From a virus (Duplodnaviria > Heunggongvirae > Uroviricota > Caudoviricetes): 64,000 bases of DNA. The DNA is taken from the IMG/VR virus record IMGVR_UViG_3300025682_000004; one strand, written 5' to 3'. The notes beneath the pieces were generated by a model that had not been told where the DNA came from, searched no databases, and saw only the letters and a list, made by a program, of their open reading frames with translations. Each line of letters begins with the position of its first letter. Position 1 is the first letter of the stretch. Positions 13,251-37,906 of the stretch are shown here, in pieces. Made by a program: the position numbers and the translations under genes.

Positions 13251-13892
13251 TCATTTTGATAATATTGTAACTATATATCTTTTTAATTTGGTAAAATCAG
13301 GAAGTAGTTTTTTATATTTATTATAAATTTCACCATCAACATCATAATAACCATACTTATAACATCTATTAGAAATAGAAGTATTTAATAATTCAACATC
13401 AAATTGAAAAAACTTATAAATATTTAAATTAATACCCCATATTTTATTATCAAATAATACATAAATTATTTCATCTTTATACTGATAAAACAAATCTATT
13501 GTTTTTGGTAATACATCCATTAAATCTTCAACATTTCTTAAATGGAAAAAAACAGGGTCTAAATCAACATACATATATTTTGGTGAAAAATAAAATTCTG
13601 GTAATAAATTTATAAATTTCTCAATACCTTTAATGTGTGATGATTTATTCTCATTAAAAGAAAATTCCCAATACAGTTCATTGGTTATTATTTTCTTTTT
13701 TAGAATATCGGCATTTTGTATAATTTCATTATCTTGATTTGTTGATTTCATAAAATTCCATCCAACGTATAATGTTGGTAAAGATTTATCAATAATTGAA
13801 TATTCAATTGGTTCTTTTATGTAGTTAACATAATCAACCATAATATGATTTACCAATTCATCTTCATAAATAATATTACCAATCTTTACCAT
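13251..13892 (-). CDS. hypothetical protein
   Basis: 213-aa ORF whose start overlaps the stop of the epimerase gene (operon-like). Confidence 0.35.
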   Translation of the reverse strand: MVKIGNIIYEDELVNHIMVDYVNYIKEPIEYSIIDKSLPTLYVGWNFMKSTNQDNEIIQNADILKKKIITNELYWEFSFNENKSSHIKGIEKFINLLPEFYFSPKYMYVDLDPVFFHLRNVEDLMDVLPKTIDLFYQYKDEIIYVLFDNKIWGINLNIYKFFQFDVELLNTSISNRCYKYGYYDVDGEIYNKYKKLLPDFTKLKRYIVTILSK

Positions 13893-14800
13893 TTTTTTAA
13901 ATAATTTAAATATTTTAAATATTCACTAATTCCATATTCTAAACTCTTAAATTTAATAGAATAACCAATTTCTTTTAATTTATCAATTTTTGCTTCTGTA
14001 AAATTTTGATATTTATCTGATATACTATCTGGAATATCAATATACTTAATATTAGGTGGTATTCCTAAATTGTGAAAAATAATATTAGCAATATCATTAA
14101 ACGACCTTGCAATTCCTGTTCCAACATTATAAATACCTGATTTTGGTAATCTATTTATTAAAAATATTATAACATTTACAACATCATCAATATGAATAAA
14201 ATCTCTTTTCTGTTCACCATCCAAAATATTAAATGTGTTTGATTTAAATAATTTTACATACCCATTATCAATAATTTGATTATATATTTGATATATCATT
14301 GAAGACATTCTAAGTTTATATTCTTCAAATTTACCATACACATTAAAAAACTTCAAACCATACCAATTCTTAGGTGATTTATGTTCTAATTGTGACCATA
14401 AATCAAAATTATGTTTTGACCAACCATATAAATTCAATGGTTTTAATTTCCAAATATCCGATTTATCATCAAAACCATAACTACCATCACCATACGTTGC
14501 AGCAGAACTAGCATAAATTAATGTTATATCATATTTAGAACATAGTTTCCAAATAAACATAGACATACCTAAATTATATTCATAAAAAAGTTCACTATTT
14601 TCTAATGTAGTATCTGTAATTGCACCCAAATGAATAATAGTTTTAATACTACTAGCATTATTTGTTAACCAAATATAAATATCATTTAAACTTTCTCTTT
14701 TAGTATCAAGAATTTTAATTGGTAATTTATTATTCGTTATAGAAAATTCAAACACTAAATTTCTACCAATAAAACCATCACCACCAGTAATTACAATCAT
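13886..14800 (-). CDS. hldD: ADP-L-glycero-D-manno-heptose 6-epimerase-like (HldD/RfaD family, SDR)
   Basis: N-terminal Rossmann MIVITGGDGFIGRNL. YASSAATYG, NVYG and NVGTG blocks align with E. coli RfaD (YASSAATYG, NVYGPRE, NLGTG) in the same order. Confidence 0.75.
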   Translation of the reverse strand: MIVITGGDGFIGRNLVFEFSITNNKLPIKILDTKRESLNDIYIWLTNNASSIKTIIHLGAITDTTLENSELFYEYNLGMSMFIWKLCSKYDITLIYASSAATYGDGSYGFDDKSDIWKLKPLNLYGWSKHNFDLWSQLEHKSPKNWYGLKFFNVYGKFEEYKLRMSSMIYQIYNQIIDNGYVKLFKSNTFNILDGEQKRDFIHIDDVVNVIIFLINRLPKSGIYNVGTGIARSFNDIANIIFHNLGIPPNIKYIDIPDSISDKYQNFTEAKIDKLKEIGYSIKFKSLEYGISEYLKYLNYLKKW

Positions 14801-15222
14801 AATTTCTTTATTTTATTAATAATATCGGTTGTTGATTTTCCGTTTGTTTTTGGATAATAAACAACACCATATTTTGAATACTCAGAACCAATAACTGTTT
14901 TATTTTTATATTCATCACCAACAACCATACAATCAATTTTTAAGTTCTTTATATAATTTTTTAATTCATCATCCGTATTAAATATAGCAACAACATCAAC
15001 CATATTTAAACTTGACATTATTTTAACTCTTGTTTCTAAATCATTTATTGGACGATTATCCCCTTTTAATTCTTTTATACGTTCATCACTATCTAAACCA
15101 ACAAATAGTTTATTTAATTTATTTTGTTTCTTTTTAGTAACACCATATCTTTTTGCAAACCACAATAAATCAATATGACCACTATGAAGAATATCAAAAC
15201 AACCATTTACCCAAACTCTCAT
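14797..15222 (-). CDS. hldC: D-beta-D-heptose 1-phosphate adenylyltransferase-like (HldE domain II / HldC; cytidylyltransferase fold)
   Basis: VWVNGCFDILHSGHIDLL matches the (H/T)xGH nucleotidyltransferase signature of the RfaE C-domain (GCFDLLHAGH). The 141-aa size fits a stand-alone HldC. Confidence 0.7.
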   Translation of the reverse strand: MRVWVNGCFDILHSGHIDLLWFAKRYGVTKKKQNKLNKLFVGLDSDERIKELKGDNRPINDLETRVKIMSSLNMVDVVAIFNTDDELKNYIKNLKIDCMVVGDEYKNKTVIGSEYSKYGVVYYPKTNGKSTTDIINKIKKL

Positions 15223-15509
15223 AATTCATCAATTTTTATTGCCTTATCATCTATTAATAAATCAAAGGCTGGTTTATTATTCATTATTAATTCATTATAT
15301 TTACAACCCCAATCAGATAGTTGTTTTTTTGTTAAATTAGTCCAATCTAAACCACTTTTCATACCCCTTCCTGTCCAATATATTATTATATTACCATCAT
15401 CATATAGTTTATTTACCTTTTTGATGTTTTCAAAATTTGGTATTGAATTAACATAATCATTTCCATTCGTATAACATATTGTATTATCAATATCTACATA
15501 AATTATCAT
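15219..15509 (-). CDS. minimal HAD-superfamily phosphatase (GmhB-like role proposed)
   Basis: DIDNT (HAD motif I, DxDxT), WTGRG (motif II Thr) and a K...DD motif III/IV. Only 96 aa. Its position between kinase and adenylyltransferase fits the pathway step. Confidence 0.5.
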   Translation of the reverse strand: MIIYVDIDNTICYTNGNDYVNSIPNFENIKKVNKLYDDGNIIIYWTGRGMKSGLDWTNLTKKQLSDWGCKYNELIMNNKPAFDLLIDDKAIKIDEL

Positions 15510-15889
15510 GATTGACTATCACCCTTTCTTATTCTATAACTATCAAAATCAAAATGTTGTGTTGATATTTCAATAATTTCACTATCTTCCAATGCTATTA
15601 TTTGATGTGGGTCACCCTGTTCAATATGAATAACATCACCAATATTAAGTTCTCTTGAATATTCAGTAGCATCATTAGTATCAATATAATTTAATATTAA
15701 TTTTCCTTTATTTACATAAAAGGTTTCTTCTTTTTTTAAATGGTAATGCATACTAAATTTAGAACCAGATTTAAATTGAAGTATTTTACCACAATAATTT
15801 TCATCATTATGTAGTATTATTTCACGACCCCATTTTTTCTCAACAATAGATTCAAAATCCAAATCATTTATGTTTAAAATTTTTATCAT
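15506..15889 (-). CDS. cupin-fold protein (candidate sugar-phosphate isomerase replacing SIS-type GmhA)
   Basis: Cupin motifs G(x)5HxH(x)3E: SMHYHLKKEETFYV ... GDVIHIEQGDPHQ. No SIS-domain gene is in the operon. The function is inferred from context only. Confidence 0.45.
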   Translation of the reverse strand: MIKILNINDLDFESIVEKKWGREIILHNDENYCGKILQFKSGSKFSMHYHLKKEETFYVNKGKLILNYIDTNDATEYSRELNIGDVIHIEQGDPHQIIALEDSEIIEISTQHFDFDSYRIRKGDSQS

Positions 15890-16641
15890 ATATTACTTTT
15901 ATTTATAACACCAACACCTTTTTGGGAAACAACCCAAGAAGCACATTTATTTGCAAAATTAATTGCTTTTGGAATATTTCCAAATTCTAAATAATTTGCC
16001 ACAAAACCTGCAAAAAAAGTATCACCAGCACCCGCTAAATTAATAATAGCATATTGTTGTTCAACATGATATAAAACATCATTATGTCTAGCACCTTCAT
16101 CCCCCAAGGTAATAATTAATTCACCCTTAAAATCATCAATTAAATACTTTGAATTATTATTAAACTCATTTTCATTAACTTTTATGAATTCTATACCATC
16201 TGCCCATTTTCCAAACTTTTTTTTGCTATCTAAAAAAACTAATTTGTGTTTATTTGTTATATTTGTTATAGTATTTTCAGTAAGAAAACCTTTATCATAA
16301 TCTGAAATTACAATAGCATCATAATCATTAAAATTAATATTAACTAAATATTCTTCTGCTTTTTCAACAATCCTATCATAACCATCAACCCTAAGTAACA
16401 TTTGATTTGTTTTTTTATCAACAAATCTTAATTTATGTGGTTTTACCATAGTATTTGTAATTATATCACACGAAATACCTAAACCTTCTAAATTATTTTT
16501 AACATTACTTGCCATACCACTAGATTGAACACCATACAAACTCTTAAAAATAGGCACTGGTGCTTCAGGACTAATTCTTTCACAAACACCATATTGAAAT
16601 TCATCAATACAACTATCACCAATAACTAATACTTTATCCAT
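15886..16641 (-). CDS. hldA: D-beta-D-heptose 7-phosphate kinase-like (HldE domain I / HldA; PfkB family)
   Basis: N-terminus KVLVIGDSCIDEFQYGVCERISPEAPVPIF closely parallels RfaE domain I (VLVVGDVMLDRYWYG...RISPEAPVPVV). C-terminal PfkB motif LAGAGDTFFAGF. Confidence 0.75.
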   Translation of the reverse strand: MDKVLVIGDSCIDEFQYGVCERISPEAPVPIFKSLYGVQSSGMASNVKNNLEGLGISCDIITNTMVKPHKLRFVDKKTNQMLLRVDGYDRIVEKAEEYLVNINFNDYDAIVISDYDKGFLTENTITNITNKHKLVFLDSKKKFGKWADGIEFIKVNENEFNNNSKYLIDDFKGELIITLGDEGARHNDVLYHVEQQYAIINLAGAGDTFFAGFVANYLEFGNIPKAINFANKCASWVVSQKGVGVINKSNI

Positions 16642-16671
16642 AATATTATTTTTTTACATAATAAATATAGT

Positions 16672-16911
16672 TTAACAAACCCAAATATATGTTGGTGTTG
16701 CATTAAATCTTCTTGTGGGTGTTTTATATCCCAAAGGTTTTAAAAAATCATCAATTTCTTTAAATTCTTCACTTGTTGCTGCTTCACAAATAATAACAGG
16801 TAATTTGTTTTTTATTAAATTTATACCACCATCAAGTATTTTTCTTTCAGCACCTTCAGTATCTATTTTAATCAACACAACATTTTCATTTAATGAAATT
16901 TCATCATCCAA
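16672..16911 (-). pseudogene. FkbM-family methyltransferase, C-terminal fragment (gene split by IS insertion)
   Basis: LIKIDTEGAERKIL matches the FkbM LKIDVEGAE block. There is no native start codon; the ORF caller used TTG. The upstream in-frame sequence runs straight into the IS end. Confidence 0.55.
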
Positions 16912-16929
16912 TGTATTTGAAATTGTGAA

Positions 16930-18120
16930 CTACCCATTTGCTAAAGACAAATGGGCTTCGGACTTCGCAGATAGTTGAGTATTACTACTTCTTACACCAT
17001 CTCCATCCGTGTTATCGAGCGTCCCACCCGATATTATTTTCAATCCTTCTTTCAGAATGACCTTTGCTGCATTTAAATCACGGTCTAATTTATGTCCATT
17101 TTTGCAAGTCCATTCACGAACCGAAAGATTTAAATCTTGATTTATCCATCCACACACATTACAAGTTTTGCTTGAGGGGTAAAAGCGATTGATTTTAACA
17201 ACTTGTTTATCGTTCCAATCTGCTTTGTACTCCAAGAATCTCACAAATGTACCCCAACTTGCATCTGCAATGTGTTTTGATAATTTTCTATTGCTCATCA
17301 TTCCCTTTACATTAAGGTCTTCCAAAGCAATTATGTCATAATCAGAAACAAGTTGATGCGATACCTTATGCAATACATCTTGTCTTGTGTTGGATATTTT
17401 CTCGTGTATTTTGGCAACTTTTCGTTTTTGTCTTTCAAACGAATTGCTACCTTTTTGCTTACGAGAAAGATGTTTTTGTGCTTTCGCTAAATCTCTTTCA
17501 TATTTCTTGGTATATCTGTTATTCTTGAATTTGATGCCGTCAGAAGTAATGGCAAAATCTTTCAAACCTAAATCCACACCACATACAGCACCAGTTTTTT
17601 CTTTTGGTTGATATTGTTCTTCGGTTAAAATTGAAACATAGTATCTTCCAGTCGGTGTTTTAGTAAAGGTCATTTTGCCAACATCGCCCCTTATTTCACG
17701 GTGAACAATACATTTAATCCCTTCTTTGAATTTAGGTACGTGAATTTTACTACCTTCTAATTTTGTGTGTTGTGGTACGGTGAAACTATTCCTTCTTTTC
17801 TTAGACTTAAATCTTGGAAACTTGGCATTGCCACGAAAGAAGTTAAGGAATGCAGTATCCAAAGACCTTAAAGCAAATTGCAGGGTTTGGCTGTTTACTT
17901 CTTTAAGCCAAGCAGTTTCCTCTTGCTTTTTTAATTCAGTCAAAGTTTTTGCTTGAACATAATAGTTGTCAGACTTCTTGTTTGCCTGATACTGTTCTTT
18001 ACGCTCATTCAGAAAGTAATTGTACACGAACCTAACACACCCGAAGTGTTTATCCAGCAACACTTTTTGGTCTTGTGTCGGTCTTAATTCAAAGCGATAT
18101 GTCCTATATATTGTTTTCAC
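16930..18120 (-). CDS. tnpB: TnpB (OrfB; RuvC-like, RNA-guided nuclease family)
   Basis: RuvC-I GVDLGLKDFA, RuvC-II IALEDLNVKGM, Zn finger CNVCG...CKNGH, RuvC-III DRDLNAAKVI. The C-terminus overlaps the right-end hairpin, where omega-RNA is normally derived. Confidence 0.85.
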   Translation of the reverse strand: MKTIYRTYRFELRPTQDQKVLLDKHFGCVRFVYNYFLNERKEQYQANKKSDNYYVQAKTLTELKKQEETAWLKEVNSQTLQFALRSLDTAFLNFFRGNAKFPRFKSKKRRNSFTVPQHTKLEGSKIHVPKFKEGIKCIVHREIRGDVGKMTFTKTPTGRYYVSILTEEQYQPKEKTGAVCGVDLGLKDFAITSDGIKFKNNRYTKKYERDLAKAQKHLSRKQKGSNSFERQKRKVAKIHEKISNTRQDVLHKVSHQLVSDYDIIALEDLNVKGMMSNRKLSKHIADASWGTFVRFLEYKADWNDKQVVKINRFYPSSKTCNVCGWINQDLNLSVREWTCKNGHKLDRDLNAAKVILKEGLKIISGGTLDNTDGDGVRSSNTQLSAKSEAHLSLANG

Positions 18121-18210
18121 GTTTACAAATATACTATATTTATACTAAATACGCAAGTTTTGTAAAAGTTCCGTCTTTGGGTAAAAACTTTCACAAAAAC
18201 TTGCTTCGTT

Positions 18211-18624
18211 ATGTCTAAAAAATCACAGTACATTTCTACAAATCGTTCAAAGCATTATCTCAAGTGCCATCTTATTTTTGTCTGCAAGTACCGTAAAAAG
18301 TTGCTTGTTGGTCAGTTAAAAGATGATATGCGTTCTATTCTTTTAAACATTACTTCTAATTCAGATTTTGAAATTGAAGTCTTTGAATCTGATTTAGACC
18401 ACATTCACTTTCTTATTCGCTACATTCCTAGTTTATCCATTACTTCAATAGTTCGTAAGTTAAAACAAGAATCTGCCTATCACATTTGGCGTTCATCTCA
18501 CAGGTCATTCTTATTTAAACATTTTTGGAAAGAACACACTTTTTGGTCAGATGGTTATTTCGTTTGCTCAATTGGTGAGGCTTCTCCTGATACCATTCGT
18601 GAGTATATTCTCAATCAGGGCTAG
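18211..18624 (+). CDS. tnpA: TnpA, IS200/IS605 Y1 (HUH) transposase
   Basis: HUH motif HIHFLI, C-terminal Tyr in TIREYIL. The 137-aa size is typical. Confidence 0.85.
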   Translation: MSKKSQYISTNRSKHYLKCHLIFVCKYRKKLLVGQLKDDMRSILLNITSNSDFEIEVFESDLDHIHFLIRYIPSLSITSIVRKLKQESAYHIWRSSHRSFLFKHFWKEHTFWSDGYFVCSIGEASPDTIREYILNQG

Positions 18625-18642
18625 TCGCTTACATCCCACAAA

Positions 18643-19104
18643 CTAAAGATTTGTGGGTTTTACGCTCCGTTTTATAAATAATAAATTGTCATTGTTTTTA
18701 TTTTTTTCAATTACTTTCGATATTCCAGTATTTTGATATGTTTCATATTTAATTAAATTTAATTCATCTTTTTTGTTCCATAAAGCAATATTTCTTAAAA
18801 CATATTGTTTTTTTGAATTTTTTGATAAATTCTCATTTAAAATGTTAAAACAAAAATTTTCTGGTTCAAATATATATAATTTTGTTGAATTACAATGATT
18901 GGCAAAAAATAATGAATGATTTCCTATATTACCACCAACATCAACATAAACACCATTTAAATTTAAATTACTAATATATTCTAATAATTCTTGTTCATAC
19001 CAAGGTATTTGTTTAAAAATATGTTCATTTTCAACTCCTTTAAATGAATATTGAAAATTATCATATTTAAAATTTTTTATAACAACATTATTTTTCATAT
19101 TCAT
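18643..19104 (-). pseudogene. FkbM-family methyltransferase, N-terminal fragment (gene split by IS insertion)
   Basis: YVDVGGNIGNHSLFFA is the FkbM SAM-binding block (DVGANIG). The last about 8 codons (RSVKPTNL-stop) are read from the IS end hairpin. Confidence 0.55.
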
Positions 19105-19258
19105 TCTTTTTATAATGAAATTATTTTATGAATTTTTCTAACTTCAGGATTCATTAATGATTCATGGTCACCATGATATGCAAAACTTTTAATAGGTGTA
19201 AATATTGGTATTTTTAAATCACGCAATCTTATTGACAATTGTCTACCAACACCTGAAC

Positions 19259-19993
19259 TCATTTTATCATTTTTTTTTTTATTGGAAATATTGTAAATTT
19301 TAATTTTTCTAATGTTTTTCTATTTGTAAAAAAACCACAATCAGTAAAAAATGATATATAAATATCATCTGAAATTTTATATGATTTTTTTCCTGTCCAC
19401 GATTCTAACCTACCATCATTAATAATATTAAAAACATAATAATACTCTGACAATAATGATGCGTATTTAAATATTCTACTAAAATTAATATTTAAAAAAT
19501 CATTTGGAATGAAACAATACACATCATAATTCGATTTTTCACACATTTTAAACATCTCATCAAATGTTTTCCAATATTGATGTTTACCTCTATGCTCACT
19601 ATTCACAATAAAACGATTATCATCCAAAACATAATCTGACCTATCATCAAATATATAATAATCAATATTATTATATTCTTTTATTTCATTTAATATCATA
19701 GTCAACATGTCAATTCTCATATAATTTGAGATTAACACCAATGTTTTTAATTCTGTATTATGTTTTTTGTTATTAAAAATATAAGCATAATCATATGTAT
19801 TACTAATATTGTTAACATCAACATCATTGACTATTAAATTATCATTAATGTTTTTTTGGTTAATATATATTTTATTGTCATTAATATTATTTTCAATAAA
19901 AATATTATTAGAATTAATAATATTAATCCTTTTTTTTATTATTCTCTTAATATTGTTTTTATTTTTTCTCATTATTATCACAATTATAATCAA
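19259..19993 (-). CDS. hypothetical protein, possibly a nucleotide-sugar transferase
   Basis: 244-aa ORF with an I/N-rich N-terminus and DD-containing segments. No secure motif. Confidence 0.3.
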   Translation of the reverse strand: MIIIVIIMRKNKNNIKRIIKKRINIINSNNIFIENNINDNKIYINQKNINDNLIVNDVDVNNISNTYDYAYIFNNKKHNTELKTLVLISNYMRIDMLTMILNEIKEYNNIDYYIFDDRSDYVLDDNRFIVNSEHRGKHQYWKTFDEMFKMCEKSNYDVYCFIPNDFLNINFSRIFKYASLLSEYYYVFNIINDGRLESWTGKKSYKISDDIYISFFTDCGFFTNRKTLEKLKFTIFPIKKKMIK

Positions 19994-20579
19994 TCTCGGT
20001 GTAGTTAATCTTACTTTTATTATTAAAATAATTTGGAAATTTTAATTTTTGTAAATTAAAATTTAATTCTGGAAACACATCAATATGCGACACAATTACA
20101 TTTAAACACTTTTTTAATTGATAACCACGTTTAAGCATTTCTTGATTTATCATAAAATCCCAATAAACAGATTCATCACAAACCCAATAATTAATATCAT
20201 CAATTACTTTTCTTCTCTGTATATTAACACAAGTTACCGTATTAACATCACCAAAAAAAACACCATTATATTCTTGAATATTTATTGGTTGAATTATATT
20301 ACCAACACCCGTTCTTTTTAACATTAATTGACCAATATTTCGAAAGGCATCCATTATATTCACAATTTTATCCAAAAAATTTTCTGTTATTGGTGGACGA
20401 TCATTATCCCATTGCATAGTATAAACACAATCATCATCCAAATTTTCATAACCCAATTTAGTCCCACCAAAATCACCTGAATTATAATCTAAAAAAATTG
20501 GCTTTATTTTATAATATCCATCAACTACAATAGATTTTAACCATTGTGTTGTACCATCAGTACTATTATTATCAATCAC
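19959..20579 (-). CDS. glycosyltransferase-like protein (GT-A fold fragment/short form)
   Basis: N-terminal IDNNSTDGT resembles the GT2 DDGSTD block. Its start overlaps the stop of the upstream gene by ATGA. Confidence 0.35.
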   Translation of the reverse strand: MIDNNSTDGTTQWLKSIVVDGYYKIKPIFLDYNSGDFGGTKLGYENLDDDCVYTMQWDNDRPPITENFLDKIVNIMDAFRNIGQLMLKRTGVGNIIQPINIQEYNGVFFGDVNTVTCVNIQRRKVIDDINYWVCDESVYWDFMINQEMLKRGYQLKKCLNVIVSHIDVFPELNFNLQKLKFPNYFNNKSKINYTEIDYNCDNNEKK

Positions 20580-21295
20580 ACCTTTAAAAATACGTTATTA
20601 ATAAAATTAGTTTGCACACTATCATCGTTTTTGTGTTTATCAAAAACATAATTATCTTCAGGATATTGTTTTTTGTGTTTTAAATACCCTTCAACATGTG
20701 ACAAAACATACCGTTTTATCCCATTTTTTTTCGCAAAATAATTAACATATAAATCATCCATTGATACATTACCACAGTAATCATACCATTTATCTAAATC
20801 ATTATAAAAATTACGTTTAAATAAACTACCACAATTACTAACAATATCGACTTCTTGATCCAATAAAACAGTACCTAACGCCCTATAAACAATTCTATCT
20901 CTATAATAACTATTAATAATACCTTTCAATAATACAACACCATGTAATGAAACATGTGCATTATATTTCTCACAACCATTAATTAATTTACCTAAATAAT
21001 CGTGTGGATATATTAAATCATCATCAGCCAACGCAATATAATAATTATTACCATGAGCAATATATTTTAATTTTTCATTACTACCCTTTTCATTATTACC
21101 CCTATATAATTTAATTCGCATATCATCGCCCAATTCTTTATTAATATATTCCCATTGCTCATCAGTCCAATTATTACACGTAATTGTTGCTGTACCAAAT
21201 TCTGGTTGACTTCTTAGCGAATTAATTGCAACAACGGCATGACCTTGTCGCCATAATGATGCAATGTAAATATCTACTTTACTATTCATAATCAT
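20576..21295 (-). CDS. putative glycosyltransferase
   Basis: ALADDD (DxD-like) and a position between other GT genes. Weak evidence. Confidence 0.35.
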   Translation of the reverse strand: MIMNSKVDIYIASLWRQGHAVVAINSLRSQPEFGTATITCNNWTDEQWEYINKELGDDMRIKLYRGNNEKGSNEKLKYIAHGNNYYIALADDDLIYPHDYLGKLINGCEKYNAHVSLHGVVLLKGIINSYYRDRIVYRALGTVLLDQEVDIVSNCGSLFKRNFYNDLDKWYDYCGNVSMDDLYVNYFAKKNGIKRYVLSHVEGYLKHKKQYPEDNYVFDKHKNDDSVQTNFINNVFLKV

Positions 21296-23396
21296 TTGGT
21301 TTTTTTCCTAAATTTGGAACACCTTGTGTTTTTGTTAACACTTGGTTAATCCATTTCTGTTTTAATTTTTTATTTTCTAATTGTTTAATAGCCCTATAAT
21401 CACCAAAATTCCAAGACACCCAATCAATTGGTAAATATTTCGAATGAAACATAAAACCAATACCAGATATATTCCCTGCAATAATTTTTCCAAAACCATT
21501 ATCATCTGGAACTATTCTTCCATTAATGTTTACTCTCCAAAGCAATAATTCATCTTCATTTTCAATATGATTCACTATTATACTTAAAGAATTTTCATTA
21601 ATAAACATATCATCATCATCTAAATACATAATCCAACCTTCTTTTACATAGTTATGTAAAACATTTATGTGTAAATTCCAAGGTGCAGGATATGATGCCA
21701 AATTATCTGGTTTTGGTTGAACTTCTTGTAATTCTAATTTAATATAATCATCACAATAATCACAATCAATATCACTACCAACAATATGATTAATATTTTT
21801 ATATGTTTGATTTAAAATTGAATCTCTACATATTTTAAAATGTTTAGGTCTATCGTGTGTTCTTGTTATAATATTAATAATTGGATTTTTATTTTCTTTA
21901 TTTCTTTTAATTTCTCTTTCTTTATTTTCAAAATCGTTTACAAAATTCATCAATCTATTATAATCAACCATAAATCTTTCATTACCACCCAAAATTTTAT
22001 TTCTACTTATAGATTCATAATGAATTGCAACAGCATCACTAACTGTAATATTTTTTAATCCATCGTATTTACATTTAATATTTAATTCAACATCTTCCAA
22101 ACATTCAATATAGTTTTCATTAAACCCACCATATTTTAAAAATAAATCTTTTTTAATTAACATAAACCCACCAGTATTTCCCAATGAATCGTAATTAATA
22201 CCAGTAAAATAATTTTCAGTTTTTCTAATATCTTTATGTGTAAGTCTTAAAATATTATTTTCTTTATACATTAAAATCCCATTATGTTGAATACTACCAT
22301 CCCCATAATGTAATCTAATACCAATAGTACCAACAGTATCTTTATTTTGATTATAAATTTCAATACATCTACTAAGACTATCATTTAATAATTTTATATC
22401 ATCATTACAAAATAGTATTAATTCTGTATCATTAGATGTATGATTTTTTACTACATCATTATTTATTTTAGCAAAATTATAATAATTATATTTTATTAAT
22501 TTAATTTTATTTGAAAGAAATGAATCATATTCCTTAATTACACTTTCATCACTACCCGTATCAGCAATAATTATTTCATAATTATCATAATTAACAACAT
22601 TATTCCAAGAATAAATATTATTTTTAATATACTTTAAATTATTTTTTGTTGGAATAATTACTGTTACTTTTGGCTCTGTTAATAAATTAACAATTAAATC
22701 ATTATATTCTGGTAATATTGTTATTGGTAATTCATCATAATATTTTTCCGCTAATTGTTTTCTATTTTCATCCCATTGTTGATTTGTTTCACCAATTGAT
22801 TTATGTAATATTCTAATATCTGTTGTTACACCAATATTACAACCATCAAGCCAATTTGGAATACAAAATGATAAATCATAAAGATGAAACCCTTTAAATT
22901 CTTCATCAAATCTATGTACAATCGTATCGGGATTAAAAGAAATAAAAAGACCATCAACCAAAACAACTGGTGTAATCACACCCTTTTTTTCTTTAGAATA
23001 TTCACTTGTCCAAATAGAATATCCATCCGTATGGTCAACAATACCAACCATTTTTGTTCTATCTTCCCACCATACACAGGATTCAGGTAAATAGGTACTA
23101 CCTGCAACACCAATAATATCAAAATTTGTTTGATTAAATTTAAAAAGCAATAATTTACCCCAATCTCTCGTACCTATAATAATATCATTATGACAAACAA
23201 CAAATATAGAATCCTTTTTATAATGTTCTTTAATCGCTTTATTATAAATTTCAGTAAGACTATACTGATTAAAATTTGAATAGCAAATTACATCATGTTT
23301 AACTTTACCAATGGTATTGTTAATATGTTTAATAAATTTCTGATTTTCTTCTTCAGATAAATGGGATGAAAAAACAACAACAATATTATTTTTCAT
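21282..23396 (-). CDS. multidomain glycosyltransferase (at least two GT2-like modules)
   Basis: Central module KVTVIIPTKNNLKYIKNNI...YEIIIADTGSDESV is a classic GT2 N-terminal pattern. The N-terminal and C-terminal regions each have additional GT-A-like DxD segments (FHLYDLSF, MYLDDDDMF). Confidence 0.6.
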   Translation of the reverse strand: MKNNIVVVFSSHLSEEENQKFIKHINNTIGKVKHDVICYSNFNQYSLTEIYNKAIKEHYKKDSIFVVCHNDIIIGTRDWGKLLLFKFNQTNFDIIGVAGSTYLPESCVWWEDRTKMVGIVDHTDGYSIWTSEYSKEKKGVITPVVLVDGLFISFNPDTIVHRFDEEFKGFHLYDLSFCIPNWLDGCNIGVTTDIRILHKSIGETNQQWDENRKQLAEKYYDELPITILPEYNDLIVNLLTEPKVTVIIPTKNNLKYIKNNIYSWNNVVNYDNYEIIIADTGSDESVIKEYDSFLSNKIKLIKYNYYNFAKINNDVVKNHTSNDTELILFCNDDIKLLNDSLSRCIEIYNQNKDTVGTIGIRLHYGDGSIQHNGILMYKENNILRLTHKDIRKTENYFTGINYDSLGNTGGFMLIKKDLFLKYGGFNENYIECLEDVELNIKCKYDGLKNITVSDAVAIHYESISRNKILGGNERFMVDYNRLMNFVNDFENKEREIKRNKENKNPIINIITRTHDRPKHFKICRDSILNQTYKNINHIVGSDIDCDYCDDYIKLELQEVQPKPDNLASYPAPWNLHINVLHNYVKEGWIMYLDDDDMFINENSLSIIVNHIENEDELLLWRVNINGRIVPDDNGFGKIIAGNISGIGFMFHSKYLPIDWVSWNFGDYRAIKQLENKKLKQKWINQVLTKTQGVPNLGKKPNDYE

Positions 23397-23445: not shown

Positions 23446-23766
23446 TCAAATAAATTGTTGCATATGATTTTTTAAAATTAATTCATAATCATAAATTGCC
23501 CTCTCTAATGGGAATGGTATTCTAATCAATGCATTATCAGGAATATCAAATTCATTTGTATATTCATTATTGGCATATAATATTAAAAAATCGTAAAAAG
23601 GATTATTATAATATTTTTGTGATAATTTATCTAACCTATCACTACCACTACTCCAAAAAATATACTTATCACTAGTATTAACAGGTAAATCAACAAAAGG
23701 CATGGGTTCAATTGAACCATCAGGCTTTTTTAATATGGCATATCTATTATAATCTAATTTTGGCAT
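23446..23766 (-). CDS. hypothetical protein
   Basis: 106-aa ORF. Confidence 0.3.
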   Translation of the reverse strand: MPKLDYNRYAILKKPDGSIEPMPFVDLPVNTSDKYIFWSSGSDRLDKLSQKYYNNPFYDFLILYANNEYTNEFDIPDNALIRIPFPLERAIYDYELILKNHMQQFI

Positions 23767-23777
23767 AATAATAAAAT

Positions 23778-26700
23778 TTATGATAAATTATTATTTGTTT
23801 TTAATTCGTTATATCTACTTTTCATATTATCAATAATATCCTTTTTTATTTCTTTAAAATATGCTTGTTGTTCCCTTGCAATTCTACTTGCCTTTTTATA
23901 AATCCCTGTATTAGTAAAAGTTGAATTGGCATAATAGTTATACGATACAGCATTTTGAAGTGCATCGATAGGTCCTGACAGTGATTGACCACCCAATACA
24001 TTCATTTGTAATGTAACCTTTGCAATCATTGGTTGCATACCAAATCCTTCAGGATTCATATCCCATGTTGTATCGTTGTAATCAACAGTAACATTATTAA
24101 TAATTACCTTTGTATAAAAGAAATCACCAACCCTTAAAATACATATTGGTTGCTTACCAAAAACTGAATTTTTTGATGTTAAATTATCTTTATCTTTTAT
24201 ATTTCTATTTCTAACTGAAGAACCTTGTCTAGTACATTGCTGTAAAAACGTTAATCTTTTATGAAAATCCTCTGGTGTTTGAGAATGATACATGGGTTTA
24301 TAATGATTCGTTTTTATTGATTCAAAATTATCAAAAATCGCTTTATCTTCTTTTGTTCTTTCTGTAAATATATTATCCTTTCTATTTCTTGCTCTATATA
24401 ATGTTGTATATAAATTTTCTAATTCTTTTTCTAATTCTTTTATTTCTAATTCATATTGATTGTCACTAACAGTACCATCTTCAGATATTGTTTTTCCATT
24501 ATGAACAAAACTTAATTCAACCCTTCTATCACCTTTTACTTCATTAATATTTTTATCATCTACATCATCACTATAATTAGAACCTTTATTTACTATTTCA
24601 ATAAAAATATCTTCATCAACAAAATCATTATTAGGAAATAATGCATTTAATCTTTTTAAAATAAAAATTTTTGCTGCTTCAAGTCTTCTTTCAACCAAAA
24701 TTGTATTATAACCAACTATATTATCACCATGTCTTGATGCATAACCTTCAAGTTTAATACCAATAACCTTTTTATTATTATTATCAACATAAACTTCTTT
24801 TAATGTCTTATTCAATAAACAATTTTCATTAATTGCATTATATTGTGATGTATCTGCACTTAAAACATATATATTGTCATTTAATCCTGAACTACCTTCA
24901 TCACCCTCTATTGTAGAATTTTTATTACTTATTTCATATTTATTATTATATATATAATCAATAACATTTGAAACCCCACCTTCTTTTGGATAATCATTTG
25001 GAAAATAAATTGAAGGTAAATTTTCTAAATTTAATCCATCAGCAACTATTTCACCAGAATTAATTAAATTATCTTTTTTTATATTATCTATTTCTTGTTT
25101 TATATCTTCAATTCTTTTTGTTAAATCACTAATACTAACACTATCTTCATAATAATCATCACCCCCAAAAGCAAAGAAATTAGCAATTTTCTTTTTATAT
25201 TCTTCTTCACCCATATAGTTAATTAAATGAGGTGGATGGTCAATAAGGAGAACAAAAGAAAGTGTTGCACTTCTTTCTGAATTCATATATGTATATATTG
25301 GTTCATTTCTACCCACCATAACAGTAGAGTCAAATTTTGCTGTTGAAGTTTCATTAAGTTCAATTCCGTATGGTGGAAACCACATAATACGACCGTTGAA
25401 CGGTCCTACCTCACTTATCGGTATTTGAGAACCATCTTCATCATCAATATAACCAATATTATTTAATTCATCCTTAACAGCAGTAACAGCAAGATTTTCA
25501 ATGCTAAACATCATGTTTTTATTATCAACATTTCCTTTATCATCTCTAATTGGATGTATTTTTGGCATTACTGAATTATATATTACAGAATCTTTATTAT
25601 TACCACTCTTATTATATGCTATATTACCATCAAACCTAATTGCCTTTACAAATTTATCATATTTATCCAATGCATTATGCTGACGAATACCTTCTTTTCT
25701 ACCTTTAAAATTTTTTGATGAATATTTTGTTAATTCTTTTTCCCATACAGGAGAACCATTAAATCCATATATTCTTTTATTTAAATCTCTATATATTTTT
25801 TTGGTCATATCAACATAAAAACCAGATGATACGTTTAATAAATTTTTAGTATATTCAAGTAAACCTCTTTTAATTTTGAAATTTTCAATATTATTATTAA
25901 TTAATTCTTTTGTATATTTATCCCTTGAATTATCTAAATTAAAATGTACAATTTGTCCAACACCATCCTTACCCCAAATTAAGTTATTTTGAATATCATC
26001 TTCAGAATCATAATTAGTTATAAAATCTTTAGGAATTTCTGTTAACTCTTGATTAGTTGTTTTACCATAAAAAAATGATATATCATGAATATCTGAAACA
26101 TATTCTTCTGCACCAGCATATGTTTCAGGTAATTTATCTGAATATGTTTTAATCATATCAGAACCATATAATATTGAATATGGATTATAAAAAAAATCAA
26201 ATCTTTTTCCTTTCAATTCATCAATTAAATCTTTTTGTCCTTTTATATTATATTTAACACGATATTCATATAACGAATTAAATTTATAAAAATTAAAATT
26301 TAGTTGTCTAAACAATTCATTTAATTGACCTTTACCTGTATAATCAACAATTTCATTTTCGTTTATAATATGTTCATAATTACTATCAATACGTTGTGAT
26401 TTATAAAATGATGGTGATAATAAATTATCAACAAAATCAAAACCAGTAATATTTAATTTAGTAATACTATAATCAGCAGGTTTACTAAAAATTGGTTCAT
26501 TCGTAAATAAATTTTGAATATTAATACTTGGTAGATAATCGGCAGTAGTACGTGCTGCTTGTGATACAGCATTAAATGTCATTTGTTTACCTAACATAAC
26601 ACTACCAATACTTTCCAATGGTGTTATGTTACCAAATAATCCAAAATCAATTCCACGACCAATTAAAGTATTTGATAAATTTAATGAATTATATTGAGGT

Positions 26701-27026
26701 ATAACATCAAGAAGTGCATTTCCAAAATTACCTAATTTAGTATCATTATTAAATCTAAATAAATTTCCAGCACTTGATGTAGCATAATCTTTATAATCTA
26801 AATCAAAACTATATCTATTTTCTTTAAGATTTCTATATAATATAAAATTTATAAATTCATCAAAAGTATAAACACCATCACCATAATGGATATTATTTTT
26901 ATTGTCAAAATTATTTAAATTTAAAATTACATTAAGAAATTCTTCAAGAGTATAATTTATATCATTATAAATAATATAATCTTTTCTTATTAAATTTGAA
27001 CTATTTTCAGGTAAATTAATATCCAT
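23778..27026 (-). CDS. large virion (tail/baseplate?) protein with OmpA/MotB-like peptidoglycan-binding-type segment
   Basis: 1082 aa, directly downstream of the tape measure gene. KLEGYASRHGDNIVGYNTILVERRLEAAKIFI resembles the OmpA_C consensus (GHTD..G....N..LS..RA..V). Confidence 0.4.
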   Translation of the reverse strand: MDINLPENSSNLIRKDYIIYNDINYTLEEFLNVILNLNNFDNKNNIHYGDGVYTFDEFINFILYRNLKENRYSFDLDYKDYATSSAGNLFRFNNDTKLGNFGNALLDVIPQYNSLNLSNTLIGRGIDFGLFGNITPLESIGSVMLGKQMTFNAVSQAARTTADYLPSINIQNLFTNEPIFSKPADYSITKLNITGFDFVDNLLSPSFYKSQRIDSNYEHIINENEIVDYTGKGQLNELFRQLNFNFYKFNSLYEYRVKYNIKGQKDLIDELKGKRFDFFYNPYSILYGSDMIKTYSDKLPETYAGAEEYVSDIHDISFFYGKTTNQELTEIPKDFITNYDSEDDIQNNLIWGKDGVGQIVHFNLDNSRDKYTKELINNNIENFKIKRGLLEYTKNLLNVSSGFYVDMTKKIYRDLNKRIYGFNGSPVWEKELTKYSSKNFKGRKEGIRQHNALDKYDKFVKAIRFDGNIAYNKSGNNKDSVIYNSVMPKIHPIRDDKGNVDNKNMMFSIENLAVTAVKDELNNIGYIDDEDGSQIPISEVGPFNGRIMWFPPYGIELNETSTAKFDSTVMVGRNEPIYTYMNSERSATLSFVLLIDHPPHLINYMGEEEYKKKIANFFAFGGDDYYEDSVSISDLTKRIEDIKQEIDNIKKDNLINSGEIVADGLNLENLPSIYFPNDYPKEGGVSNVIDYIYNNKYEISNKNSTIEGDEGSSGLNDNIYVLSADTSQYNAINENCLLNKTLKEVYVDNNNKKVIGIKLEGYASRHGDNIVGYNTILVERRLEAAKIFILKRLNALFPNNDFVDEDIFIEIVNKGSNYSDDVDDKNINEVKGDRRVELSFVHNGKTISEDGTVSDNQYELEIKELEKELENLYTTLYRARNRKDNIFTERTKEDKAIFDNFESIKTNHYKPMYHSQTPEDFHKRLTFLQQCTRQGSSVRNRNIKDKDNLTSKNSVFGKQPICILRVGDFFYTKVIINNVTVDYNDTTWDMNPEGFGMQPMIAKVTLQMNVLGGQSLSGPIDALQNAVSYNYYANSTFTNTGIYKKASRIAREQQAYFKEIKKDIIDNMKSRYNELKTNNNLS

Positions 27027-30359: not shown

Positions 30360-31289
30360 CTAGATGCTTGGGAAAAAAAAATCTAAACCAATTGTTAAAT
30401 TAGCATTGAAAGTATATCCATCTTTAGCAGTAAAGACATAATCCATATCAACATCAGGACTAACATCCAACATTTTTTTACGAATTGCGTATGCATCCAA
30501 TGCTGGCATTGCATCAACAAACTTACTAATATATGTTTTATTAGTATTACCATCTATTGATACAATACTTGCAACTAATCTCATGGTAGAATACTGACTA
30601 AATTCTTCATTTTTTGCTTCTTTTAAAGATTCAGCAGTTTTATATATTCTTGTATCTTCACCAACAGTTAATAGTTTAAAAAGTACATTTTTTTTACGCA
30701 TTGGTAAATCAACACTAAACAAACCATTATCGTTTGGTTTTTCTTCAATTTTTTTATATTTAAGTTTTGTTAAATCAACTGTTGTTTTAAATGGAACACC
30801 TGTTCTTGGGTCAGTTACTTGAACAGTATAATCAGAACCATAACTTGTTATACGTAAAAACAGTAAAATTGCATTACGGTCACCTGGTAATAAATCTTCT
30901 GGATTAACATTTGGTGTTTTTATTTTTCTTTTCAATAGTAAGTCTAAAACAACACCACTTTCAATTAATGATGAAGTAGTTAATAAATCTTCATCTTTTG
31001 ATGTCATATATTCGACATTTATTTCAGAAAGACCATTTTTATAAAATAAACCTTTAGATGGTAATTTAACAATTTCATAAGTTGTAATTAAATCTGGGTC
31101 GGTTTCTTTAGACATGGCTTTTTCAAATTCTTCATGATTAAATTGTTGTAAATTAGGTGTATTTTCTTGTGGTTTTGGAATGTTGATTTGATTTGTATTT
31201 TCATTTTCAACATTATCTTTTTGACTTCTATATTTTTTTAGAAGGTCAGAAATACCCTTTTTTTGAGAAAAATTTTTTTCTTCAGACAT
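30360..31289 (-). CDS. hypothetical protein (tail-associated by position)
   Basis: 309-aa ORF. Confidence 0.35.
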   Translation of the reverse strand: MSEEKNFSQKKGISDLLKKYRSQKDNVENENTNQINIPKPQENTPNLQQFNHEEFEKAMSKETDPDLITTYEIVKLPSKGLFYKNGLSEINVEYMTSKDEDLLTTSSLIESGVVLDLLLKRKIKTPNVNPEDLLPGDRNAILLFLRITSYGSDYTVQVTDPRTGVPFKTTVDLTKLKYKKIEEKPNDNGLFSVDLPMRKKNVLFKLLTVGEDTRIYKTAESLKEAKNEEFSQYSTMRLVASIVSIDGNTNKTYISKFVDAMPALDAYAIRKKMLDVSPDVDMDYVFTAKDGYTFNANLTIGLDFFFPSI

Positions 31290-31413: not shown

Positions 31414-31692
31414 ATGAGTAATATGATTTTAGTTATTTATGTTGGTGTTGCTAATATTAGATTAGCAGATATTGAAGATTTTGTAAAAAAAGTTACAAAA
31501 AAAATTACACCTGAAAGATTTGAAGGTGAAATAATAGTTATACCAACAAATACAATTGATACTAAAATTGAATGTATTAATCCGAGATATGTTACTGAAG
31601 AAGCATTAATTAAAGAACATAATGAAATGATGAAAAAATTAAATAATTTACTTAATTATCAAATAAATGAATTAGAAAATGAAAATAAATAA
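31414..31692 (+). CDS. hypothetical protein
   Basis: 92-aa ORF. Confidence 0.3.
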   Translation: MSNMILVIYVGVANIRLADIEDFVKKVTKKITPERFEGEIIVIPTNTIDTKIECINPRYVTEEALIKEHNEMMKKLNNLLNYQINELENENK

Positions 31693-32431
31693 AAAAAATG
31701 TTGGAATTGATATTGATGAAATATTAAGGGCGAAATGGTTACAATTTGATAAGTATTATGTTGAAGAATTTGGTTTAGATGGTGTTCCAAAAGAACAGGA
31801 ATATGTTTATGATTTCTTTAATAATTATAAATTTAATGATGTTGAAGAAATAATTAAAGAACTTAAAGAGCCAGAAGATATTCCAGAAAATATAAGTCCA
31901 TTAGAATATCAATTGAATGATAAAAATGAAGCACCTGCTGATTTTTTATTATTTAAAAAGGAGAATAAAATAAAATTAACATCAAAAGAAGTTTATAATA
32001 GATTCATGTATGAAGATTACTTATTTGAAATACATGGTTCAGCACCGATGATGTATAGAAATATGGATGTTGATGTTAATAAATTTTATGATAAATATTG
32101 TGATACTGTTAATTTTACATTATTTTCTGTTGAAAATAGATTTAGTATACCACCCACATTATTCTTTTTAAGTAAAATTAAAAGTAGATTTGAAAACATT
32201 CGATTTGTAAAAAAATCTATTGAAATGTGGAATAATATTGATATTTTAATAACAACAGACCCAGAAATATTAAAATTAGGAACACCTTGGTTTAAAAAAC
32301 TAATAAAAGTAAAAAGACCATATAATGAAAAGTTTAATTCATATTCAATGGAAATTTTACAAATAGCAGAATTAATAGAAAATAAGGATTTTGAAAAAAT
32401 AATAAAATATAAAAAAAATGAAAATGGATAA
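31679..32431 (+). CDS. hypothetical protein
   Basis: 250-aa ORF, translationally coupled to its neighbours. Confidence 0.35.
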   Translation: MKINKKNVGIDIDEILRAKWLQFDKYYVEEFGLDGVPKEQEYVYDFFNNYKFNDVEEIIKELKEPEDIPENISPLEYQLNDKNEAPADFLLFKKENKIKLTSKEVYNRFMYEDYLFEIHGSAPMMYRNMDVDVNKFYDKYCDTVNFTLFSVENRFSIPPTLFFLSKIKSRFENIRFVKKSIEMWNNIDILITTDPEILKLGTPWFKKLIKVKRPYNEKFNSYSMEILQIAELIENKDFEKIIKYKKNENG

Positions 32432-34392: not shown

Positions 34393-34492
34393 ACATTTTT
34401 ATTTATAAATTTATTTAAATATAAATATATAATAAAAAATGAATATGAAAAATATGTGAAAATATCATATTATTTTTAATGTTTTTTATTGA

Positions 34493-35353: not shown

Positions 35354-35397
35354 TAAATTTTAATTATTACTATTTATATGTACTAAAACTAATAATT

Positions 35398-37694: not shown

Positions 37695-37698
37695 AAAT

Positions 37699-37902: not shown

Positions 37903-37906
37903 TAAT

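Follow-up and report, generated by a model that had tools for sequence, protein, structure and literature searches.

A predicted glycan-synthesis island anchored by a triple-module glycosyltransferase in a putative T4-like phage

What would a tailed phage glycosylate with an island of its own glycosyltransferase (GT), methyltransferase, and sugar-activation genes? The question is raised by the IMG/VR virus record IMGVR_UViG_3300025682_000004, of which a stretch of 64,000 nucleotides (nt), hereafter the window, was analyzed. An earlier reading made from the letters alone (the sequence-only reading) had described four consecutive minus-strand open reading frames (ORFs) with GT hallmarks in a phage glycan-synthesis island of roughly 10 kb. 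We found all four ORFs where that reading had placed them, in an island of ~9.5 kb (13886–23396) that comprises GT-A enzymes, an FkbM methyltransferase gene, and an ADP-heptose operon, and whose GT genes adjoin the structural gene module. That the window derives from a phage is evident from its genes for a major capsid protein of the gp23 type (phrog_138, E 5e-65), a protease for head maturation (phrog_207), and a baseplate protein of the T4 type. The island is thus real; what had been overlooked is that two of the four GT genes and the FkbM gene are damaged, that part of the largest GT forms a core to which the rest is a swappable appendage, and that two further GT genes lie at 32418–34392. 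Our tentative answer to the question, to which we give a little under an even chance, is that the island serves the cytoplasmic glycosylation of virion proteins.

An anchor glycosyltransferase built from three GT-A modules

GT families were called with Pfam and NCBIfam hidden Markov models (HMMs), PHROGs were scanned as well, and the window proteins were compared by tblastn with 48 IMG/VR loci (given below as L numbers). The anchor gene of the island encodes a 704-amino acid (aa) protein (Table 1), for which two or three GT modules had been suggested. The number settles at three (A, B, and C), judged by the AlphaFold2 units, the Foldseek matches, and the separate occurrence of the modules in relatives. 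The AlphaFold2 model (mean predicted local distance difference test score, pLDDT, 84.4; 44 homologues in the alignment) shows three Rossmann-like GT-A units, with a long helix (aa 471–501) connecting units B and C. Its leading Foldseek matches are the tandem-GT-A enzymes K4CP, LH3, PmHS2, and Mimivirus R699, and the viral library returned an uncultured-phage GT at 29% identity together with Megaviridae multi-GT proteins. Homologues of the protein measure 704–725 aa and share 66–71% identity with it.

Module A is a full-length domain of the Glyco_tranf_2_5 type, in which aa 8–219 cover positions 5–210 of 210 of the PF13712 profile and score above its gathering threshold (E 2.3e-25; 90 bits, threshold 27). 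It carries the motifs CHNDI (aa 68–72), VDGLF (aa 147–151), FHLYD (aa 170–174), and ILHKS (aa 196–200), within which five columns (H69, D71, D148, H171, and H198) are invariant in the 44 homologues. Module B is a classical GT2 domain; the PF00535 match of the protein (E 1.4e-13, 51.5 bits against 23.3) falls in two stretches, the best of them at aa 245–421. The motifs IIPTKNN (aa 247–253) and ADTGSDES (aa 278–285), on which the sequence-only reading had drawn, are indeed found in this module, along with FCNDDI (a DxD motif) and ECLEDVE. Its NCBIfam matches (EpsD, TuaG, and HpsN-like) were every one below cutoff, and its sequence match in the PDB is K4CP. Module C, with the motifs IITRTHDRP and YLDDDDM (DxD), resembles the N-terminal half of PglI over aa 505–613 (NCBIfam, E 5e-12) and GalT1 of PDB 5hea (E 7e-4), is modelled at lower pLDDT (49–90), and is an accessory, being missing from most relatives.

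The modules are combined differently in the related contigs: A stands alone in 11 loci, A+B is found in most loci, A+C in L022, C alone in 10 loci, and A+B+C in L001 and L025. Since A, A+B, A+C, and C alone are encoded separately in relatives, we take the three modules to be real evolutionary units. As for the GT hallmarks that had been attributed to all four ORFs, Pfam bears them out in the 704-aa and 239-aa proteins, while the 206-aa ORF is sub-threshold and the 244-aa ORF is a GT-A protein by structure only. DxD-type motifs nonetheless occur across the island GTs (FCNDDI, YLDDDDM, LADDDL, WDNDRP, and IPNDF), and the GT-A fold of those modelled is supported by AlphaFold2 and by Foldseek matches that are exclusively GT-A enzymes.

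A swappable cassette behind the core gene

In 21 contigs (18 IMG/VR loci and three contigs from metagenome-assembled genomes, MAGs), the hub, tape-measure-like, 1082-aa, and 106-aa genes come directly before the GT gene, the 1082-aa/106-aa flank being co-linear with it throughout. The backbone of the locus begins with baseplate, tape-measure-like, 1082-aa, 106-aa, and GT (A+B) genes, passes through a variable segment, and continues with genes for 213-aa, 234-aa, 149-aa, and 691-aa proteins. The 213-aa gene bounds the cassette on its downstream side and, in the window, shares 7 nt with hldD. Neither the 1082-aa nor the 106-aa protein had a family match, and none was found for the 213-aa protein, in the families or in the PDB; comparison of these three and of the genes at 31679–38818 with PHROGs, Pfam, and PDB sequences yielded almost nothing, and resemblances noted by eye (LysM-like, spike-like, sigma-like) were given no weight.

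The segment behind the GT gene varies from 0 to 9.5 kb. It is absent from L008, L009, L019, and L024, where the 213-aa gene follows the GT gene within ~55–125 nt, and measures ~2.7 kb in L025, 4 kb in L022, ~8 kb in L001 and L004, and 9.5 kb in L005. The cassettes of L001, L004, L005, L022, L025, and the window differ, with largely non-overlapping gene sets. In the relatives they encode GT2, GT-D-like, and rhamnosyltransferase-like enzymes, besides FkbM and class-I methyltransferases, a NeuD-type acetyltransferase, PseB-like, PseC-like, and RmlD/dehydratase-like proteins, and a WecB above its cutoff. In the distant L011 and L021, A+B is followed directly by homologues of the genes at window 35398–38818, which have no family assignment. 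Given a fixed backbone with a variable segment after the GT, we read A+B as the core gene and all that lies downstream as a swappable, serotype-like cassette.

From 27026 to 13251, all genes lie on the same strand with overlaps or gaps within ~50 nt, except at an insertion sequence (IS) described below. No convincing terminator was found in this interval; promoter-like sites, in DNA as AT-rich as this, were as numerous as in shuffled sequence and so are no guide. No multi-pass membrane protein was found either, since none of 87 cassette ORFs from 10 loci and none of the island ORFs has more than one hydrophobic segment, which points to a soluble machinery without flippase, polymerase, ligase, or initiating phosphoglycosyltransferase.

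The three MAG contigs with the phage synteny (25–33% GC) are L052 (Candidatus Vampirococcus lugosii), L053 (Paceibacterota), and L054 (a Bacteroidetes bin), and to judge by their gene order are probably phage contigs binned into MAGs. On L052, ~1.9 kb (790–2710) separates the 106-aa gene from the A+B GT gene, which are adjacent everywhere else. The L053 scaffold, at 362,763 bp, may be a whole jumbo-phage genome.

An ADP-heptose operon in which a cupin may stand in for GmhA

Five tightly overlapping genes at the downstream end of the island resemble the known pathway to ADP-L-glycero-beta-D-manno-heptose (GmhA, HldA/HldE, GmhB, HldC, and HldD) in that a kinase, a phosphatase, an adenylyltransferase, and a 6-epimerase are encoded in one operon. 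The epimerase is HldD above the equivalog cutoff (TIGR02197, 313.4 bits against 274.6). The kinase (PF00294) and the nucleotidyltransferase (PF01467), in contrast to the known pathway, are separate proteins that both score below the equivalog cutoffs of their best matches (TIGR02198, E 3.5e-35, 121.7 bits, cutoff 345; TIGR02199, E 1.5e-31, 109.2 bits, cutoff 181.5). The phosphatase is also unusual in being a minimal HAD protein of 96 aa, which matches the capsule biosynthesis phosphatase model TIGR01689 (E 3.4e-7) and, weakly, HAD_PNKP.

No SIS-fold GmhA was found among the window ORFs scanned, whether within the operon or outside it, and a 127-aa cupin stands in the operon instead, kept in the same slot in L001, L005, and L022. 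From this position, we infer that the cupin is a candidate non-orthologous sedoheptulose-7-phosphate isomerase replacing GmhA, or else a sugar epimerase. The operon, present in three loci of the comparison, looks intact in this genome.

Three damaged accessory genes

Modules A, B, and C, the 239-aa GT2, and the heptose operon are intact in the window; the 206-aa GT2, the FkbM methyltransferase, and a 287-aa GT are damaged. The 239-aa GT2 (PF00535, E 2.4e-8, 34.5 bits against 23.3) has homologues in L001 and L025 at 67–68% identity. The 206-aa ORF behind it exists as had been noted, with the motif IDNNSTDGT at aa 2–10, and is GT2-like, but it is not a complete GT2. It starts with a GTG that overlaps the stop codon of the upstream gene, and reaches 20 bits against PF00535 (below the 23.3 required), the match beginning at profile position 33. 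The L001 homologue is 238 aa long, has 36 additional N-terminal residues, and opens with MAKVNIIIRAFNR; in L001, moreover, three extra genes lie between the two GT2 homologues. By this comparison, a deletion here has taken those three genes and the first ~36 codons, so that the 206-aa ORF is without beta1-alpha1 of the GT-A fold. The truncation is also present in sibling assemblies.

The FkbM family assignment is confirmed (TIGR01444, 58.9 bits against 37.7), but the N-terminal half covers profile positions 1–85 of 143 only, and the gene is not intact: the rest of the domain sits 1.75 kb away, across an IS200/IS605 element. The final ~13 codons of the N-half ORF derive from the IS end, and the C-half (VVLIKIDTEGAERKIL) resumes straight after the stop codon of TnpB, at ~16925. 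An intact 248-aa homologue, L004_14222, spans both parts, with its aa 54–157 corresponding to 19017–18706 and its aa 176–230 to 16881–16723. The element has divergent tnpA and tnpB genes, subterminal hairpins at 18627–18665 and 16933–16955, and a GC content of 31% against ~24% for the window, and its junction with FkbM recurs in the sibling assembly contig L051. As a guide to the host, TnpB returned relatives of up to 94% identity that are abundant in metagenomes, none with an organism name. An IStron (a self-splicing IS) was considered and rejected, as an Rfam search of 12–32 kb (E <= 0.1) gave no group I intron or other RNA.

The third lesion concerns the 244-aa ORF, which has a GT-A fold by model, as its listing among the GTs implied, but is itself a frameshifted form of a 287-aa gene. 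The database protein P0121 is 100% identical to it but 287 aa long, and three Logan contigs (99.94–99.96% identity) have the gene intact, reading CCAATAAAAATAAAAAATGAT where the window has CCAAT(A)11TGAT; an A11 homopolymer (minus strand) at window 19270–19280 replaces the A5-T-A6 of these three assemblies. As the three independent assemblies agree, the window copy has a 1-nt deletion and hence a frameshift, the true gene running from 19972 to 19110, and the TTG start of the 244-aa ORF at 19993 is spurious. The deletion is seen in this window alone among the sibling assemblies, and is either an error of assembly or a genuine variant, possibly one prone to slippage. Samples of runs DRR438527, DRR438533, and DRR438535 contain the phage, the intact 287-aa allele being that of DRR438535.

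A new GT-A family and a shared basic leader

The 244-aa ORF displayed no family match in Pfam, NCBIfam, or PHROGs, and the family of the 287-aa protein is rare (22 proteins among 5.8 billion, with members of ~290–320 aa). In the full-length AlphaFold2 model (pLDDT 80.9), an N-terminal helix is joined by a disordered linker to a GT-A core, and every significant Foldseek match is a GT-A protein (E 1e-5 to 1e-3), including COLGALT1, PcManGT, STIV A197, Manic Fringe, and SunS. A comparison of the family with modules A–C by hhalign gave a probability of 2%, too weak to count. On the strength of the model, we consider the 287-aa protein to represent a new GT-A family, one without a Pfam model.

The protein opens with a basic leader, MRKNKNNIKRIIKKRI, of which aa 1–16 (window 19925–19972) follow the motif MKKxxxNIKKxIKKRI; AlphaFold2 predicts it to be helical, with a disordered basic linker next. 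The motif heads most members of the 287-aa family and occurs on exactly one protein per cassette in L001 and L007 (GT2), L005 and L006 (GT-D-like), and L022 (unassigned). Because the same basic motif is found on GT2, GT-D-like, and new GT-A family proteins, the leader appears to be a portable N-terminal module carried by unrelated catalytic folds. It could act as a docking, membrane-binding, or nucleic-acid-binding signal.

Table 1. Coordinates of the island, its flanks, and other features discussed in the text; positions are those of the window unless an L number is given.
Feature	Position	Strand	Basis or remark
213-aa protein, downstream cassette border	13251–13892	-	Homologues in 13 loci
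ADP-glyceromanno-heptose 6-epimerase (HldD)	13886–14800	-	TIGR02197
Nucleotidyltransferase, best match heptose-1-phosphate adenylyltransferase (HldC / RfaE domain II)	14797–15222	-	PF01467, TIGR02199
96-aa minimal HAD phosphatase, GmhB-like role	15219–15509	-	DIDNT motif
127-aa cupin	15506–15889	-	Cupin_1, Cupin_2; weak MannoseP_isomer, Lyx_isomer
pfkB-type sugar kinase, best match heptose-7-phosphate kinase (HldA / RfaE domain I)	15886–16641	-	PF00294, TIGR02198
FkbM C-half	16672–16925	-	Frame translation, L004 homologue
IS200/IS605 element within FkbM gene	16926–18685 (ends approximate)		TnpA, TnpB, hairpins
TnpB	16930–18120	-	PF01385, PF07282, PF12323
TnpA (Y1 transposase)	18211–18624	+	PF01797
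FkbM-family methyltransferase N-half	18643–19104	-	TIGR01444, phrog_8156
287-aa GT-A-fold protein gene, frameshifted in window	19110–19972	-	Sibling assemblies, AlphaFold2, Foldseek
206-aa 5'-truncated GT2 remnant	19959–20579	-	Partial PF00535, L001 homologue
Intact 239-aa GT2 glycosyltransferase	20576–21295	-	PF00535; LADDDL (DxD)
704-aa glycosyltransferase, GT-A modules A-B-C, island anchor gene	21282–23396	-	Pfam, AlphaFold2, Foldseek
Module C, third GT-A module, aa 505–704	21285–21884	-	PglI N-half, PDB 5hea
Module B, classical GT2, aa 240–470	21987–22679	-	PF00535
Module A, Glyco_tranf_2_5 type, aa 1–228	22713–23396	-	PF13712
Conserved upstream flank: 1082-aa and 106-aa proteins, after tape-measure-like gene	23446–27026	-	
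T4-type baseplate protein	30360–31289		PF12322, phrog_150
392-aa Agt/AmGGT-like GT-B	32418–33596	+	Profile A3 vs PDB 8xsg_A, E 1.6e-14, near full length
273-aa GT2	33571–34392	+	PF00535, 30.4 bits vs 23.3
Leader-bearing gene, L001	12847–13656		
Leader-bearing gene, L005	17449–18501		
Leader-bearing gene, L006	12837–14345		
Leader-bearing gene, L007	13506–14417		
Leader-bearing gene, L022	4973–5665		
A+B-TPR-GT41 protein, L055	6189–9788		
A+B-TPR-GT41 protein, L056	7938–11552		

The likely acceptor

The closest bacterial homologues of A+B, found on Competibacteraceae MAG contigs (53–56% GC) at 34–38% identity over aa 1–485, are proteins of 1186–1199 aa in which A+B is followed by tetratricopeptide repeats (TPRs) and a GT41 domain (PF13844, 51.9 bits against 25). 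GT41 enzymes (OGT, SPY, and HMW1C/NGT) glycosylate proteins, and their TPRs bind the substrate. A large methyltransferase-domain protein adjoins each of these A+B-TPR-GT41 genes, and L055 also has a GT4 gene ~2 kb away.

A further clue comes from the two GTs beyond the island, an Agt/AmGGT-like GT-B protein and a GT2. Agt relatives extend the glucose that a cytoplasmic N-glycosyltransferase has placed on glycopeptides (PMC12159676). In L017, L035, and L040, an Agt-like gene and a GT2 gene come next downstream of the module-A or A+B cassette, and in L020 the Agt-like gene alone does so; the GTs at 32418–34392 may therefore be part of the same system as the island. The GT-D-like enzymes and the PseB/PseC-like, WecB, and NeuD-like sugar genes in the cassettes of relatives count in the same direction. 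Between virion, host surface, and DNA, the sequence-only reading had made no choice; the evidence added here tilts towards protein as the acceptor. The TPR+GT41 fusion, the Agt-like neighbour, and the tail-hub context favour virion proteins in particular, and mycobacteriophages, in which capsid and tail tube are glycosylated (as cited in PMC12619734), provide a precedent.

Under this reading, the A+B core GT, encoded just after the tail-hub genes, would anchor glycan assembly in the cytoplasm, and the cassette behind it would act like an O-antigen locus in bacteria. In the infected cell, the enzymes, all of them soluble, would assemble an oligosaccharide, probably with heptose in it, directly on a protein. 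The likeliest acceptors would be one or more virion structural proteins made at the same time, such that the particle surface would carry a strain-specific glycan. The sequences themselves show the domain content, the conserved anchor with its variable cassette, the lack of membrane components, the heptose-pathway assignment, and the three lesions; the acceptor, the order in which the sugars are added, and the GT that would use ADP-heptose are what we infer here.

A number of observations weigh against virion-protein glycosylation, some of which form the case for another acceptor and are given with it below. Window scans revealed no GT41 or other recognised initiating protein-GT. Enzymes known to use ADP-heptose belong mostly to GT-B, and a GT9 is lacking here. 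The flanking 'structural' genes are mostly without family, HMM support being confined to the baseplate protein, and with three accessory genes damaged the full pathway may not run in this genome.

The TPR+GT41 fusion and the Agt-like neighbour would fit equally well with the glycosylation of host or non-structural phage proteins, in the manner of glycosylating toxins or effectors, for takeover or protection of the cell, as nothing marks the acceptor as structural. We regard this as improbable, because hypervariable rare-sugar cassettes typify exposed surface glycans and not regulatory single-sugar marks, and co-linearity with the tail-hub genes fits late expression.

The named relatives of modules B and C direct attention instead to the host envelope, which the phage could remodel by letting its soluble GTs act on lipid-linked intermediates (undecaprenyl-pyrophosphate oligosaccharides or lipid A-core). 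The host flippase and ligase would then export the product. Lipopolysaccharide (LPS), lipooligosaccharide (LOS), or capsule would thereby change in the course of infection, which might, for instance, block superinfection or keep progeny from adsorbing to debris. EpsD, TuaG, HpsN, and PglI all work on lipid-linked glycans, PF13712 members occur in the LOS outer-core loci of Acinetobacter, and ADP-L,D-heptose, to which the above-cutoff HldD points, is the classical donor of the LPS inner core. The one GT per cassette with a basic amphipathic N-terminal helix could, in addition, bind a membrane. Yet some ten independent cassettes include no initiating phosphoglycosyltransferase, flippase, polymerase, or ligase, the genes follow those of the tail hub rather than accompanying early genes, and A+B is fused to TPR+GT41 in bacteria. 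A GT9 heptosyltransferase is likewise missing. Envelope remodelling is, on balance, an unlikely function for the island.

Hypermodification of phage DNA, in which a glycan, possibly with heptose, would be placed on a hydroxylated pyrimidine as a defence against restriction, seems to us quite unlikely, even though several points speak for it. DNA heptosylation is known in phages, whose clusters add mono- to trisaccharides including heptose to 5-hydroxymethylcytosine, some with GT-A-fold enzymes (bioRxiv 10.1101/2023.12.21.572611), and T4-like phages poly-arabinosylate 5-hydroxycytosine (PMC13326640). In a distant lineage of eight loci (L017, L030, L031, L035, L036, L037, L040, and L041), a dUTPase-like gene directly precedes the module-A gene, and in L036 and L037 the two overlap by 4 nt; this adjacency may stem from an operon shared with nucleotide metabolism, or be no more than synteny. 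One GT per cassette has a strongly basic leader and linker, and diversifying selection is likewise to be expected of DNA modifications.

Set against this, no hydroxymethylase, 5mYOX/TET enzyme, C5-methyltransferase, or deoxynucleoside monophosphate kinase was found in or near the island, the window being 64 kb of a genome of probably >200 kb. The sole ThyA homologue of the window, 30 kb off, scores above the thymidylate-synthase equivalog cutoff (TIGR03284, 260.7 against 108.35), and a separate Mom-like DNA-modification gene is already at hand in the window. The DNA transferases characterised for heptose and arabinose belong to GT-B and not GT-A, and cassettes that combine 5–9 GT domains with methyl-, acetyl-, and aminotransferases imply glycans larger than any so far known on DNA.

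Virion-protein glycosylation can be extended to a bolder proposal, which we consider possible but doubtful: a viral O-antigen-like locus, in which A+B would start the virion glycan, swappable cassettes would extend it, and the leader would recruit one enzyme, amounting to a phage 'serotype' system under diversifying selection. The sugars would be heptose, pseudaminic-acid-like sugars, and N-acetylmannosamine, with methyl or acetyl decorations, and the shared basic leader would have been grafted onto unrelated folds (GT2, GT-D-like, and the new GT-A family).

The source phage and other features of the window

The major capsid protein has at most 33% identity to those of the Microcystis phage Mel-JY01 and metagenomic 'huge phages', and no near-identical DNA was found among 50,697 GenBank phage records. 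Given such remote capsid relatives and the lack of a GenBank phage match, the source would be an uncultivated, distantly T4-like myophage. Neither module A nor the Agt-like or tape-measure-like protein had a match when searched against the GenBank phages, and the 704-aa protein matched the 50,697 records through module B only, in fragmentary records. IMG/VR contigs with relatives reach 365 kb (those of 200–365 kb include IMGVR_UViG_3300031669_005479 and 3300044712_001937), and the window is probably part of a genome of >200 kb. Its GC content is ~24%. A code-25 host, prompted by the 'Candidatus Vampirococcus' label of a homologue, was rejected, as all three stop codons are used over 59 ORFs (TAA 38, TAG 11, and TGA 10), indicating the standard genetic code.

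A 485-aa ORF (44546–46003, plus strand) directly follows the major capsid gene (42775–44457) and combines a Mom-family domain (PF25680, 92 bits) with a GIY-YIG homing-endonuclease domain. The thymidylate synthase gene (53101–54171, minus strand) matches its family in two stretches (aa 1–201 and 239–345), which suggests an insert of ~40 residues, and a dUTPase-like gene (54198–54767) adjoins it. At 1944–2136 (minus strand), ARAGORN called a tRNA-Cys whose anticodon, ACA, is unusual, and a tRNA of 87 nt (anticodon CAU) that it assigned to Met.

Comparison with known systems

Glycosylation clusters and multi-GT polypeptides are already known from viruses, and the island is therefore not a new kind of system. 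To our knowledge, glycosylation of tailed-phage particles has been experimentally shown in few groups only. Among these are the mycobacteriophages, for whose GTs the decoration of capsid and tail proteins, in the cytoplasm, has been either proposed or demonstrated (Freeman et al. 2023, as cited in PMC12619734). Their loci likewise have GT-A-type GTs and methyltransferases beside structural genes, with a content that varies between phages. They differ from the present, putative system in that it has a triple-module enzyme, its own ADP-heptose pathway, and a far larger cassette. Nor was a sequence relationship detected: module A, the whole 704-aa protein, and the Agt-like protein, taken as tblastn queries against the 50,697 phage records, gave no mycobacteriophage match. 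Moraphages, with four core GT orthogroups (PMC12619734), might be related to this lineage.

In giant viruses, Foldseek places Mimivirus R699 and the Megaviridae multi-GT proteins among the top matches, although the likeness is at the level of the fold (11–16% identity) and the hosts are eukaryotic. Giant viruses encode rare-sugar pathways of their own; A064R of PBCV-1 is a three-domain enzyme, and the glycosylation clusters of Megavirinae are clade-specific, with GT-A modules and methyltransferases in single polypeptides. The best PDB matches, K4CP (the chondroitin polymerase of E. coli K4) and PmHS2 (a heparosan synthase of Pasteurella), share the tandem GT-A domains, each with a DxD motif. 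These are polymerases of repeating-disaccharide capsules, whereas the phage protein has three shuffled modules, no export machinery beside it, and 12–15% identity to them.

The bacterial TPR-GT41 and NGT/Agt systems are soluble and cytoplasmic, as the island appears to be, and are connected to it by the fusion of A+B homologues to TPR+GT41 and by the Agt-like phage gene; the phage protein, however, is without TPR or GT41, and no GT41 gene was found in the window. Phage DNA-glycan clusters combine GTs with sugar activation (HAD phosphatase, kinase, and nucleotidyltransferase), as the island does, and can involve heptose (Pyle et al., bioRxiv 10.1101/2023.12.21.572611; Lee et al. 2026, PMC13326640). 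Unlike the island, they have a base-hydroxylating or hydroxymethylating enzyme alongside and GT-B heptose or arabinose transferases. Surface polysaccharide clusters of the Wzx/Wzy- or ABC-dependent type differ in having an integral-membrane initiating transferase, flippase, polymerase, or ligase, none of which was found here.

What goes beyond the described cases is the anchor with a swappable cassette beside tail genes, the free shuffling of three GT-A modules, the ADP-heptose operon with a cupin for GmhA, the new GT-A family, and the leader shared between enzymes. If the acceptor were DNA or the host envelope, those systems would be extended to GT-A enzymes and to much larger glycans. Whichever it is, the triple GT-A enzyme, the Pfam-less GT-A family, the cupin for GmhA, and the leader common to unrelated GT folds offer themselves as experimental subjects. 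If virions are decorated, a whole environmental lineage of large phages would possess a variable glycan coat, which would matter for how hosts are recognised, how neutralisation or grazing is evaded, and how stable the particles are.

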